A DNA stretch of 64,000 bases from Eledone cirrhosa (Eukaryota), in contig OZ024761.1 in assembly GCA_964016885.1 (NCBI GenBank), forward strand, positions 2,728,001 through 2,792,000, written 5' to 3'. How positions within the stretch are numbered: the first letter of the stretch is position 1; each line of letters opens with the position of its first letter. A model generated the notes under the pieces. That model worked only from the letters and a program-made list of their open reading frames with translations. It searched no databases and had not been told where the DNA came from. A program made the translations under genes and the position numbers. Below, in pieces: positions 1,411 to 61,477 of this stretch.

Positions 1411-1633
1411 GAATCACAGGAATCAAAGTTATGTTCAAACCATTTATTAGCTTACAATTGTTTCATCCAAACCGAGGTTTGGAGTCTTCGGAGCATTTTT
1501 CAATGTTTGTATACATATGGTCACGTATGTATACAAACATTGAAAAATTCTCCGAAGACCTCAAACCTCGGTTTGGATGAAACAATTGTAAGCTTATAAA
1601 GGGTTTAAACATAACTTTGATTCCTGTGAATTC
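1411..1633. mobile_element. Fold-back non-autonomous PLE-terminus element with two HHR motifs (CCGAAGA core)
   Basis: ~107-bp inverted arms around ~1521, next to (TA)n. HHR gct-CCGAAGA-ctccaaacctcggtttggat-GAAAC-AATT-GTA-agc closely matches the PLE end at 63773-63850. Confidence 0.8.
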
Positions 1634-1902
1634 TATATAACTGCTCTGTAGAACAACTGATGTTATTACATTGAGCTATTTATCTTACTGGTAATAAGGT
1701 AGTAATAAATTACTGTCTTTCACTGTTTAGGGTTTAAAATATATATAACTATAAATAGTTTTAGTATATACATAACCATAAATAGTATCCTTAATACTAT
1801 ATATATATATATAGTAATAATAATAAATTTGAAGACTAAAATCCAAAGAGGTCGATAATGATAAATATATATCAAATATATAAGAACCGTAGAGTAAATA
1901 TT

Positions 1903-2078
1903 TATTAAAATAACAGATTAAAGTTTAAGCAAAGAATCGCTGCTTTCACCCTTAACGGGATCTTCTGAAACTAACAAAGTCAAGCTGTGAACGCAGATTG
2001 ACTTTGTTAGTTTCAGAAGATTCCGTTAAGGGTGAAAGCAGCGATTGTTTGCTTAAACTTTAATCTGTTATTTTAATA
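1903..2078. mobile_element. Fold-back element with degenerate HHR-like motif
   Basis: ~85-bp inverted arms around ~1990, ending at (TA)n; CAGAAGA-tcc..ggg-t-GAAAG. Confidence 0.65.
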
Positions 2079-2247
2079 TATATATATATATATATATATC
2101 AAGTAAGTATGTTTTGAAACAGTGAGCGAGTTTGAAATTAGAAAATATATAGCTTTCACCGTATTTTTAACTAAAGGAATTTTAGCTTGATAACGGGGTT
2201 TACAACCCTCAGATAAATGGAAAAAGATGAGTATTGACGTACATGTA

Positions 2248-2707
2248 CACACACACACACACACACACACACACACACACACACACACACACACACACAC
2301 ACACACACACACACACACACACACACACACACACACACACACACACACACACACACACACACACACACACACACACACACACACACACACACACACACAC
2401 ACACACACACACACACACACACACACACACACACACACACACACACACACACACACACACACACACACACACACACACACACACACACACACACACACAC
2501 ACACACACACACACACACACACACACACACACACACACACACACACACACACACACACACACACACACACACACACACACACACACACACACACACACAC
2601 ACACACACACACACACACACACACACACACACACACACACACACACACACACACACACACACACACACACACACACACACACACACACACACACACACAC
2701 ACACACA
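2248..2707. repeat. (CA)n microsatellite, ~460 bp
   Basis: Direct reading. Confidence 0.98.
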
Positions 2708-3034
2708 AATTAAATATTTTCAAAGTCTAACCGTTTAACTTTCGAAAAAAAACCCCCACACTTTATCTTTCCCTCCTTATAAATCTTTTTTTAGTGGCTA
2801 TCACTGGCTGTTATGATTCATGAGACGTTTCCCTAGATATATTGTAGTATCATACAATTTAAAATTTTAGAACACTTTAAATATGCAACGTTTTTTCTGA
2901 CTCACACACTCTCTAATGAATTCATTACATTTTCGGACTCTCACACAGATATTATATAAGTAAAATTTTCTATCGGGTAATCACTACCTTGATTAAATCT
3001 TAACCATTTAACATCTCAGGGTATGTCATGTATC

Positions 3035-58600: not shown

Positions 58601-59895
58601 CTCACTTAGGATTAGGAAAGCAAGTGATGCTTTCGGAAAGCTAGAAAGGCGACTCTGGGGTCGGCGAGATATATGCAGGAGGACAAAGGTAAAGGTGTAC
58701 AGGGCATGTGTGCTCTCTTGTCTTCTTTATGCCTGCGAGACCTGGGTCACATATCGACACCACCTTAAGCAATTGGAGCGTTTCCATCAGATGTGTCTCA
58801 GACGGATCCATGGCGTTCACTGGAGGGACCACATCAGTGATGTCGAGATTTTGGAAAGCTCTATGTGTGACAGTATAGAAGCTCTTGTGCTTAAGCAACG
58901 ACTCCGTTGGAGTGGTCACCTTGCCAGGATGAAGGATTCTAGAATACCAAAACAACTCTTTTATGGAGAGTTGGTTAAAGGAAAACGACCGCCACATAAA
59001 CCAAAAAAGAGGTATAAGGATTCCTTGAAAGCCTCTCTGAAAGACGCTAACATCTCTGCTGATACATGGGAAAATATTGCTGCTGATCGTAATAAATGGA
59101 GAAAGACTGTATATGAGGGTAAAGTTGCCTTTGAGGCATCTCGCATCGCATACGAGAAAGTAAAGCGGGATGTGAGGAAGGGCATTGCTGTTGCACTTCC
59201 AGACGGCGAGGGTCCTCCTATGGTGCTGACATGCAGCGTCTGTGCGAGACTCTGCCTAAGCAAACCTGGACTCGAAAGTCAACTTCGCAGTCATAAAGTA
59301 AGACCAGTGGTTGACTACCAGGCTGCTGTTGGAGATGCTACTCATGATGCTTGCCAAACATGTGGTAGAGAATGTAAATCAGCAGGAGGGCTCAAGCGAC
59401 ATGCAAAAGTACACGAACTCCAACCACAGCCGACTATTCCCAGTGAATGTTTTGGTTGCCGACTCTGTGCAAGACATTTTAGATAATTGGCTGGGCTAAA
59501 AAGCCACATTCGATCGCAGCGCTGTTAGTTGCTATCGTGTGTGTGTGTGTGTGTGTGTAGATGTGCTTATGTGTGTGCGTGTGTGTGTATATATATATGT
59601 ATATGTATATTATTATTGTTGTTGTCGTTATTATTATTGTTGTTATGATTATTATTATTATTATTGTTATTAATGTATGTGTGTGTATATGTGTGTGTGA
59701 GTGTGTGTATGTTTGTGTATATGTGTATGTATATGTATATATATATATATATATATATATATATATATATATATATTTTTTTTTTTTTATATTTTTTATT
59801 TTTTTTTTATTTTTATTTATTTATTATTATTATTATTTTTTTTTTCTTTCTCGTGCAATGGCCATACTCGATAACGAGGGGGGTAGCCATCATCA
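55620..59895 (+). mobile_element. Near-full-length RTE-clade (BovB-like) LINE
   Basis: 5' UTR with ctaggagaagg motif, single APE-RT ORF, short 3' tail ending (CAT)n/(GTAT)n; the 3' UTR is split by a microsatellite block at ~59539-59850. Confidence 0.92.
55997..59528 (+). pseudogene. RTE APE endonuclease, RT and three C2H2 fingers; frameshifted
   Basis: GCWNVR, ALSETR, SVYAPT, GDFNAR, LLDYV, WTDHRL, NYRGISLL, QSGFR, FVDLTKAFD, GVKQG, LLYADD, FVYLGS, LRWSGH. Frameshifts near 56455, 57660 and 58450-58490; TAA at 59484. Confidence 0.93.
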
Positions 59896-60212
59896 TGTAT
59901 GTATGTATGTATGTATGTATGTATGTATGTATGTATGTATGTATGTATGTATGTATGTATGTATGTGTGTCTGTGTGTATGCATGTATGTATGTGTGTGT
60001 GTATATATGTATGTATGTGTGTCTGTGTGAGTGTGTGTATGTATGTGTGTGTGTGTGTGTAAGTATGTATGTGTGCATATGTATGTGTGTGTATGTATGA
60101 GTGTATGAATGTATGTATGTATATGTGTGTGTGTATGTATGTGTGTGTGTATGTGTGTGTGTGTGTGTGTATGTGTGTGTATGTATGTATATATGGGTGT
60201 ATATATATATTG

Positions 60213-60805
60213 CTGCTACTGGTAACATGTATCCCAGTACAACCTGTCTCATGGTCGGGTCGTTGGCGACTAAACTGGCAGCCCCACCCAAGTTTCTTGG
60301 TGAGGAGGGTGACTTTGGACATCCTGCAGGACTAAAAACAAAACCTGTCAAATGGTAAAGGAGCTCTTAAGAGTCAATGGCCATCCAAAATCACCGGGAG
60401 AGATGACCCCTTACCCTTTTGTCAAGGCAGAATTCTAGGAGAAGGAAAACTCTGATATAAACCTGCAACTCTGATGGTATCCAATGATGTTGACTTGTTC
60501 TTCTTTTTGGTAAATATCATCTTGGTTAAGAGAGTGGGACTGGCTTTGTGCAGTGCCTTTGCTCACTATAAAAGCTTCACGGCACAGGTATTGCTTTGTA
60601 TCTGGAGATCTCTCTGCACTTGTCATCACATGGTACCATGGGCCCAGCACTATGTGTCAATAATTGTCACAAGTGTAGTGTTTGTACCAGAGTTTTCAAG
60701 TCGCTGGCTGGACTAAAAAGTCACACTCGTTCAGCGCATCGGTAGGGGTTCTCCTACATGGATATAAAGTAGTGGCCGTACTCGAAAACGAGTTGGCAGC
60801 CACCA
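60213..60805 (+). mobile_element. RTE-derived non-autonomous element, second copy
   Basis: Nearly identical to 43637-44230. Confidence 0.82.
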
Positions 60806-60999
60806 TATATATATGTGTGTGTGTGTATGTATGTTGTGAAGGTGTTTGTGTGTTTGTGTGTGTGTGAGTGTGTCTGTCTGTTTTTGTGTGTCAGTGTGTG
60901 CGTGTCTGTGTATATATATCTGTAAATACGAGTGTACGGACACACACACACACACACGCACACACACACACACATATACATATAAAATGTGGGTATATT

Positions 61000-61477
61000 A
61001 AATATTATCCAATAACAAGTATGAGAATAGCTCAATGTAAAATAACAAATATATTACAGAGCCGAAATACTTTATATACAACAAAACAATCAAAGAGTGT
61101 TTTAGAGCATTTAATCAGTAACGATCGTTTCATCCAAGCACAAGGCCGGTTTGATCGGAGTATATAGTAATGGTTAAAACACAAATAAATTTGTCAAAGA
61201 AGATTTTAAGGATACACAATATAGGAAGTAAGCATAAGTATTAACATTCATATGAACAGATAACAAAGGTAGAAGAAGCCAATGAAAAATATGAGCATAT
61301 TTATACATATATATACAAGAAATGAAATTAGGAGCAGCTAAAAGCATTAAAAACGTTCTTTGACAAGTTTATTTGTGTTCTAACCTTTACTATATGCTCC
61401 GATGATTCCGGCCTTGTGCTTGGATGAAACGAACGTTAGTGATTAAATGTTCTAAAACACTCTTAGATTGTTATTTA
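61000..61477. mobile_element. Fold-back PLE-terminus element with two CCGAT(G/C)A HHR motifs
   Basis: Arms 61080-61202 and 61356-61476 with a ~150-bp spacer. HHR (+) at 61395-61441: tgct-CCGATGA-ttcc..tgga-t-GAAAC-GAAC-GTT-agtg. The tail ttacattgagctatt is shared with 1666-1680. Confidence 0.75.

Follow-up and report, generated by a model that had tools for sequence, protein, structure and literature searches.

Five palindromes in a 64,000-nucleotide (nt) stretch of the genome of Eledone cirrhosa (contig OZ024761.1 of assembly GCA_964016885.1, positions 2,728,001–2,792,000 of the forward strand; hereafter, the window) are very probably by-products of the insertion of Penelope-like elements (PLEs), whichever of two priming routes gave them their inverted arms. 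They are likely dead-end insertion products, mostly of Hydra-type PLEs, and most likely represent the shortest form of an already known by-product, not a new class.

Palindromes of probable PLE termini at (TA)n repeats

A preliminary description of this DNA listed five palindromes, here labelled by their starts as A (1411), B (1903), C (3506), D (44272), and E (61080), and measured by self-BLAST and arm alignment. All five are present, with arms 91–99% identical and spacers of 1–137 nt. Palindrome A (1411–1633; arms 1405–1517 and 1526–1639, 94.7% identical, spacer 8 nt) consists of head-to-head copies of a PLE terminus. In B (1903–2078; arms 1895–1987 and 1994–2086, 94.6%), the spacer of 6 nt (14 nt including a 4-bp stem) is part of the left arm's parent sequence, as seen in mapped reads, and the junction shows 4-nt microhomology. 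The arms of C (3502–3899; 3502–3700 and 3702–3899, 98.5%, spacer 1 nt) meet at the 5′ strand of helix I of the hammerhead motif, D (44280–44591; arms 44270–44433 and 44438–44601, 99.4%, spacer 4 nt) has (TA)n at both ends and no tail, and E (61067–61485; arms 61067–61209 and 61347–61485, 90.6%) has a spacer of 137 nt. Families A and E are related (alignment z 9–16), and thus the earlier count of about four unrelated sequences is fair; self-comparison of the window revealed no second copy of any palindrome.

Among the five, A alone could be linked to a terminus lying beyond a coding PLE; its arms are 84% identical over 80 nt to positions 63769–63848, in agreement with the match to 63773–63850 reported earlier. 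These positions belong to an A-family terminus (63735–63858, plus strand) that carries a hammerhead (63777→63815), stops at (TA)n, and, judged by adjacency only, is likely the 3′ end of a Hydra-clade open reading frame (ORF) located 1.45 kb upstream (61456–62328, plus strand).

An end of each palindrome lies within 0–5 nt of (TA)n (five out of five, vs. 3.7% of non-TA positions), e.g., the left end of A and the right end of B are flush with it. Both the statement that at least one end abuts (TA)n and the proposal that (TA)n is the target are thereby supported. In A, B, C, and E, just one arm stops at (TA)n, and the other continues as a family "tail," a feature absent from the preliminary description; the coding element PLE3 (see below) also has a tail on one end only. 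The tail of A (1640–1797, plus strand, approximately 160 nt) itself stops at (TA)n, and those of B (1815–1902, approximately 90 nt), C (3368–3501, approximately 135 nt), and E (60980–61066, approximately 85 nt, homologous to the tail of A) are on the minus strand. An exact 12-mer is common to the tails of A (1666–1677), C (3416–3427), and E (61029–61040), with three occurrences in the window vs. 0.007 expected, or four vs. 0.48 if one mismatch is allowed; it is a candidate binding site of a PLE protein. A stretch near 18050 on the minus strand is related to the region of this 12-mer. A YIELF-like frame in the tails, considered as the N terminus of an ORF, was rejected, as the pattern [YF][IVL]EL[FY] had no match in 120 homologues, and the motif is a nucleotide one only.

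Independent reads from four of 16 listed runs, which did not include the small-share runs X7–X13, were mapped at at least 80% identity to positions 1190–2240 only, i.e., over A and B. The mapped material includes 15,518 contigs from run X1 and 20,038 reads from run X14, the latter coming from a different study (12.47 million records); both families are also present in two further organisms (organisms B and C). The arm families of A and B are therefore abundant, with depth giving no copy number, and of the claim that the palindromes form a major repeat class the abundance stands and the separate class does not. The tails of A and B are family sequence, because read coverage extends through them, a contig from organism B (1562–1788) reaches into the tail of A, and reads of the B family end at two sites, 2,364 of them at 1898, going into (TA)n, and 1,217 near 1852.

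The centres vary. The X14 depth is 68 at the centre of A vs. approximately 1,100 in its left arm, with 748 reads diverging at 1495, and past the centre of B, 1,211 reads (at 1997) and 607 reads (at 1978) run on as other family sequence. Eight strand-switch joints, among the 15 of 78 joints listed, lie at differing places, 1–113 nt apart, and two of them, 1921/1972 and 1955/1967, are found in both X1 and X14. Upstream, the organism-B contig runs on into similar sequence and does not fold back. Thus, 5′ truncation varies between copies of the B family and, in part, of the A family. Such a pattern would be expected if fold-backs had formed anew many times instead of spreading as a fixed unit, and it speaks against their being assembly artefacts alone. 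A pile of read ends at 1456 probably reflects a restriction cut (AATT-containing site) of restriction-site-associated DNA (RAD) libraries, not ribozyme cleavage.

Long inverted repeats flanked by TA could also be miniature inverted-repeat transposable elements (MITEs) of a TA-targeting DNA transposon, with hammerhead-like motifs present by chance. The tails, however, make the ends asymmetrical, the centre varies, and neither fixed ends nor uniform length was found for A and B; moreover, the arms match PLE termini and Hydra-type ribozymes, and no transposase was recognised among the listed ORFs of the window, eight of which were scanned against Pfam. A MITE origin is thus largely refuted already and hardly credible, and the tails, the variable centres, and the match to a PLE terminus support the earlier proposal that the palindromes are retro-derived from PLE termini.

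Hammerhead motifs were sought with a type I descriptor that left position 4 free and tolerated a mismatch at 10.1/11.1, and compared with local shuffles (2-mer blocks within 500-nt windows). There were 19 matches in the window vs. a shuffle mean of 0.5 and maximum of 4 (30 shuffles). A relaxed descriptor gave 27 matches vs. a mean of 1.3 and maximum of 5 (15 shuffles), covering nine out of ten palindrome arms; a third scoring gave 15 matches vs. 0–6 in shuffles, with B and C lost. The motif in every arm points from the centre outward. The cores are located at 1491→1453 (minus strand) and 1552→1590 (plus strand) in A, a U4C variant with a palindromic helix III; at 1967→1927 (minus) and 2014→2054 (plus) in B, a U4A variant with U·U at 10.1/11.1; at 3693→3570 (minus) and 3709→3832 (plus) in C, with a canonical core and a 105-nt helix II region; at 44372→44318 (minus) and 44499→44553 (plus) in D, also canonical; and at 61399→61437 (plus, U4C) and 61158→61120 (minus) in E. 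The latter, left arm of E, broken by G8C, is the sole arm failing the relaxed descriptor and the only departure from the claim of a hammerhead in each arm. A recognisable cleavage site had been ascribed to four palindromes only, but all five have one; its distance from the (TA)n-flush end is 42, 21, 64, 43, and 45 nt in A–E, respectively, and so the suggested range of about 40–65 nt fits A, C, D, and E, but not B. A pyrimidine mismatch at 10.1/11.1, the base of helix II, is present in A, B, and E; the canonical cores of C and D have no matched parent PLE. U4C has been reported to lower hammerhead activity (PMC3088659).

As the paired ribozymes are on opposite strands, a single transcript never holds both in sense, and read-through RNA of the palindromes is predicted to form near-perfect hairpins (−133 to −292 kcal/mol). 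Hammerheads would be included because they adjoin the start sites of reverse transcription, and are probably passengers, given their opposite strands and their predicted burial in the hairpin. The number of hammerheads in a fold-back (two, one, or zero) depends only on the truncation point of each arm.

Several further motifs were observed. A very long helix II is found at 3709–3832 (105 nt) and, in a degenerate motif spotted by eye that failed the descriptor, at about 13395–13290 on the minus strand (approximately 88 nt, helix I broken). Truncation points often lie at the 5′ strand of helix I, e.g., at the centre of C (3700) and in a ribozyme-only stub between TA tracts (37745–37815), and likewise in seven out of eight listed strand-switch joints of family B (1960–1972); this strand may be a truncation hotspot, or else the way in which cases were selected, and the read length, may have biased the pattern. 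Further termini with a lone hammerhead, each located upstream of (TA)n, occur at 1238, 3047, 10975, 20469, 37443, and 37600, of which those at 3047, 10975, and 37443 are mutually related, and that at 1238 is related to fold-back G (see below).

Priming routes and their rivals

Each palindrome has the order target, antisense copy, junction, sense copy, target, which matches the order expected if each target end had primed cDNA from the end of the element. Priming from both target ends is, in our view, the probable route. The PLE endonuclease would nick both strands of (TA)n, and each target 3′ end would prime cDNA synthesis at a family start site downstream of the hammerhead. A near start would lie 21–64 nt past the cleavage site and a far start 85–165 nt further, leaving a one-sided tail; both termini are seen in the sequence and in the reads. 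Both cDNAs would stop early, often independently, as the variable junctions suggest, and would then be joined with 0–4 nt of microhomology. A precedent for the initial steps is a lizard PLE that, in vitro, makes nicks in both strands of AT-rich DNA and extends from each; it starts at two internal sites, one on either side of the tail, is a predicted dimer, and can insert with its hammerhead inactive (Frangieh et al., 2024; PMC11167929). No explicit model of two-ended priming for PLEs was found in the literature searched, which did not cover subscription papers.

Two-ended priming is favoured because the inversions in two PLE fragments of the window hold upstream codons that a snap-back cannot supply. 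Fragment H (24412–25508), a Hydra endonuclease fragment, has an inverted portion on the minus strand (24412–24597), and the inverted segment, within 24412–24830, holds upstream codons missing from the plus-strand part; at the end of this fragment is a hammerhead (25252→25283) with U3–A8 core covariation. Similarly, a Neptune-like PLE (15970–17839) has its reverse transcriptase on the minus strand and its thumb and GIY-YIG domains on the plus strand, with a 16-bp duplication at the junction, and its inverted segment holds upstream codons missing from the forward part. Both resemble inversions of the twin-priming type. In twin priming of L1, reportedly described by Ostertag and Kazazian in 2001, cDNA synthesis also starts from the second target end, with the same RNA as template, so that the 5′ segment becomes inverted. 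H and the Neptune-like element likewise have an inverted 5′ segment; in A–E, unlike L1, the second priming would use the terminal start site, not an internal one, and thus the terminus would be duplicated.

The same PLE by-products could have received the inverted arm by self-priming, in which a cDNA primed from one target end stops early, folds on a short hairpin, and copies itself, after which the endonuclease, or TA microhomology, would trim the far end back to the near start site. We consider this route rather unlikely, though it accounts well for the spacers of 1, 4, 6, and 8 nt in C, D, B, and A, respectively, and for the 4-bp stem with a 6-nt loop that appears at the junction of B once the parent sequence is taken from the reads; the choice of near-perfect palindromes in the preliminary description biases toward short spacers. 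Self-priming is the explanation offered for head-to-head palindromic junctions by Arkhipova et al. (2013; PMC3846280), and the tail is ascribed to endonuclease-mediated resolution in PMC8557442. A similar fold-back, a 29-nt snap-back-like terminal palindrome (43604–43663), is also seen at the end of an RTE-like, non-PLE element. On the other hand, spacers are 118–1643 nt long in E, PLE3, and two other fold-backs (F and G, see below) and 1–113 nt among the read joints, H and the Neptune-like element cannot come from snap-back, and the second arm must halt exactly at the family start site in four out of five cases. Both routes may operate. Of the earlier proposal that both ends of a break prime reverse transcription, the orientation is as expected, and the priming itself is inferred, with self-priming as its rival.

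The abundance of the arm families, the 98.5–99.4% symmetry of C and D (the reads covered A and B only), and the occurrence of ORF-less hammerhead tandem units in the window would suit a self-propagating, ORF-less family of fold-back retroposons with fixed ends, whole palindromes being copied by PLE proteins. We consider such a family improbable, as no palindrome occurs twice in the window, the centres of A and B are rare or variable in the reads, and the predicted near-perfect hairpin RNA would be a poor template. A specific form of this idea, to which we attach equally little weight, is that palindromes of the C and D type propagate themselves: each strand ends in a PLE start site, and PLE reverse transcriptase would copy the whole hairpin into new (TA)n sites; in C, the 12-mer also found in A and E would recruit the enzyme. 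If this were true, the genome would gain a large source of long double-stranded RNA.

Several observations weigh against two-ended priming by Hydra-type PLEs as the source of the palindromes. Besides the points given above for self-priming, i.e., spacers of 1–8 nt in four out of five palindromes, the published explanation, and the fold-back of the RTE-like element, these are the tails, longer (85–165 nt in A, B, C, and E, and 56 nt in PLE3) than the 30–40 nt published for PLE insertion units (PMC8557442); the absence of hammerheads among the 150 of 174 Rfam rows listed for the window; minimum-energy folds of the isolated motifs, which gave a full hammerhead in only some of ten; the 1.45 kb of unassigned sequence spanned by the link of A to the Hydra ORF, whereas published Hydra elements are shorter than 3 kb as a whole; and the lack of a matched parent PLE for B, C, and D. 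Furthermore, read support covers two out of five palindromes, no record spans the full 1190–2240 stretch, and many RAD joints begin at one place, possibly being duplicates or library chimeras. The last two points, together with the trouble that PLE repeats are known to cause in assemblies (PMC8557442), would also be expected of an assembly or library fold-back artefact. Such an artefact is very improbable: the arms differ by up to 9%, the spacers are non-palindromic, the tails are one-sided, two strand-switch joints recur across the runs of two studies, and the architecture equals that of curated PLEs.

Coding PLEs, related fold-backs, and published systems

Three Hydra-like PLE fragments are present in the window, namely, 13124–16070 (minus strand), H, and 61456–62328. 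The first ends at (TA)n and has DKT, in ORF 14097–16070, in addition to CxCX5C, CxxC, and CxH, which are found in both Hydra ORFs tested. The last is 5′-truncated, with homology starting from 61504, and carries the CxCX5C linker, YVG, CxxC, and CxH. No Pfam family was found for the two ORFs. Their homologues, including a named one from Argonauta (38% identity), are 32–42% identical and carry RWK; since the window copies are 5′-truncated, RWK is known from the homologues alone. These motifs, as well as (TA)n insertion in almost all families, are those of the Hydra clade as described in section 11 of PMC8557442, where the clade includes Hydra-1 from Octopus bimaculoides and Penelope-13_HM. Thus, in (TA)n insertion and in the motifs DKT, CxCX5C, CxxC, and CxH, the coding neighbours agree with the Hydra clade.

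When arms and tails were compared with the other PLE 3′ ends of the window, as had been suggested, a strong match was found for A only; B, D, and E yielded nothing above z 4, and C only a weak match (z 5.3) near 18050. The 3′ regions of the two Hydra elements do not align with each other (z 1.5). Searches outside the window yielded 161 pattern matches of the Hydra alignment in viral contigs and 27 matches of a single Hydra protein in metagenome contigs, none of them confirmed, and no matches of a B-family 21-mer in metagenome contigs. B and E are tied to Hydra-type PLEs by their ribozyme signature, and E also via its likeness to A, whereas C and D are tied to PLEs by architecture only.

According to file S2 of PMC8557442, helix II begins with a pyrimidine mismatch at its base in most published Hydra-clade hammerheads, and the supplement describes Repbase Penelope-13_HM as having an inverted copy, with one hammerhead per strand. 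In A, B, and E, we find both (TA)n insertion and a hammerhead of the Hydra type, with the helix II mismatch used as a criterion by our own reading of file S2. The window hammerheads share with those of the Hydra clade this mismatch, a short self-complementary helix III, and, as in Penelope-13_HM, the pairing on opposite strands, but differ from those of file S2 in the U4C and U4A cores (A, B, E, and 63777) and in the 105-nt helix II region of C. The long spacing between ORF and ribozyme at 61456–63858 also differs from that of published Hydra elements.

Palindromes A–E belong to a continuum of sizes. Ten fold-backs were measured, with arms of 44–787 nt, spacers of 1–1643 nt, and two, one, or no ribozymes; fragment H, PLE3, and fold-backs F, G, I, and J were absent from the preliminary description. 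PLE3 (26465–29733, plus strand) is a coding PLE with reverse transcriptase and GIY-YIG domains (Pfam matches RVT_1 and GIY-YIG, both below the cut-off) and a 787-nt inverted 5′-truncated copy, hammerheads at 29484 (plus) and 26654 (minus), (TA)n on both sides, and its tail on the right only, and is the long form of the A–E architecture. Fold-back F (20560–21466) is an ORF-less 541-nt unit in a partial tandem with a hammerhead at 20806→20735 (minus strand); its inverted copy begins inside helix II, and thus its 130-nt arms have half a ribozyme. G (9592–9805) has 47-nt arms, one hammerhead (9743→9674, minus strand) in a 118-nt spacer, and its left end at (TA)n. J (12281–13030, plus strand) is an ORF-less partial tandem of an approximately 470-nt unit with a hammerhead at 12726→12756; in front of this tandem lies a 59-nt fold-back that has no ribozyme. 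The J family occurs again as I (23325–23940, plus strand; hammerhead 23730→23760), where the fold-back is 44 nt long and the terminal stretch is missing from its left arm. A third copy of this family of approximately 420–470 nt, with one hammerhead per unit, is found at 1–207. An internal PLE3-family fragment (22069–22552; 94% identical to 28505–28844, inverted) has short palindromes on each side (22069–22140 and 22477–22552).

The palindromes had been presented as a distinct double-hammerhead class. This view is not upheld, as the same architecture is shared by G with one ribozyme, F with half, and H, I, and J with none in the arms, the centres of A and B vary, and the arrangement has been published. 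Craig et al. (2021; PMC8557442) describe an adjacent inverted 5′-truncated copy and a one-sided tail of 30–40 bp as general PLE features, and list the formation of inverted-copy structures as unresolved. Like the PLE insertion units of PMC8557442 and PMC3846280, the window palindromes have a head-to-head inverted copy, a palindromic junction, a tail at one end, strong 5′ truncation, and an AT-rich or (TA)n target, as well as a type I hammerhead near the 3′ terminus (in nine out of ten arms); unlike those units, both copies are too short for any ORF. Short insertions are also known elsewhere, e.g., in Chlamydomonas, where the median new PLE insertion is 128 bp long (PMC9977147), and a curation guide names inverted pseudo-long terminal repeats and 3′ extensions (PMC8969392).

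In Schistosoma mansoni, dual minimal hammerheads 100–700 bp apart on opposite strands have been reported, and truncated PLEs were named as the source of most motifs (Cervera and de la Peña, 2014; PMC4209133). These pairs resemble ours in having two close type I motifs on opposite strands and no ORF, but the Results of that paper do not treat them as palindromes or link them to (TA)n, and helix III is here present and self-complementary. Retrozymes, in turn, are head-to-tail arrays that yield circular RNA (PMC7229834; bioRxiv 10.64898/2026.07.22.740005; review, PMC6765202). The palindromes agree with metazoan non-long-terminal-repeat retrozymes in the lack of ORFs, the type I hammerhead, and a probable PLE origin, but A–E are arranged head to head, not head to tail, with no cutting to unit length by two ribozymes of the same strand. 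F, I, and J (approximately 420–540 nt) are closer to retrozymes: their longest Met-started ORFs have 48–83 codons, and they are partial tandems with one complete hammerhead each, though not two complete units. The J/I family resembles, by its sequence, a retrozyme-like RNA with PLE-type insertion footprints.

Thus, inverted 5′-truncated copies, one-sided tails, (TA)n targeting by Hydra-clade PLEs, and hammerheads on opposite strands are already published. Still of note are the length of the tails and the 12-mer that three of them share, the variant ribozymes, and the inverted ends of F, I, and J, which are tandem units lacking an ORF.

Neighbouring repeats and significance

Other repeats of the window include an RTE long interspersed nuclear element and related short non-autonomous copies beside microsatellites (43604–44229, with the 29-nt terminal fold-back, 60210–60804, 53773–54297, and 55909–59486). 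An abundant family of short interspersed nuclear elements (SINEs) is found at 4616–4800, 21511–21697, 27290–27400, 38894–39385, 39598–39751, and 40525–40694; two copies at 38894–39385 face each other, forming a chance inverted repeat. This family presumably resembles an octopus SINE. Long minisatellite arrays occupy 6111–7709, 32183–33371, 45740–47891, and 49987–53146 (periods 24, 32, 39, and 25, respectively), the first of them beginning at the end of a SINE-like fragment.

As a new class, the palindromes matter little, their architecture having been described before and the stubs being probably inert. Such stubs are, however, open to mis-annotation as MITEs or as microRNA hairpins, the latter because the Rfam rows over A and C are microRNA-hairpin families below their gathering cut-offs. 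A genome rich in short PLE insertions offers many junctions for deciding between priming from the second target end and self-priming. Finally, hammerhead units that lack an ORF but have inverted ends would directly record the mobilisation of retrozyme-like RNAs by PLE proteins.

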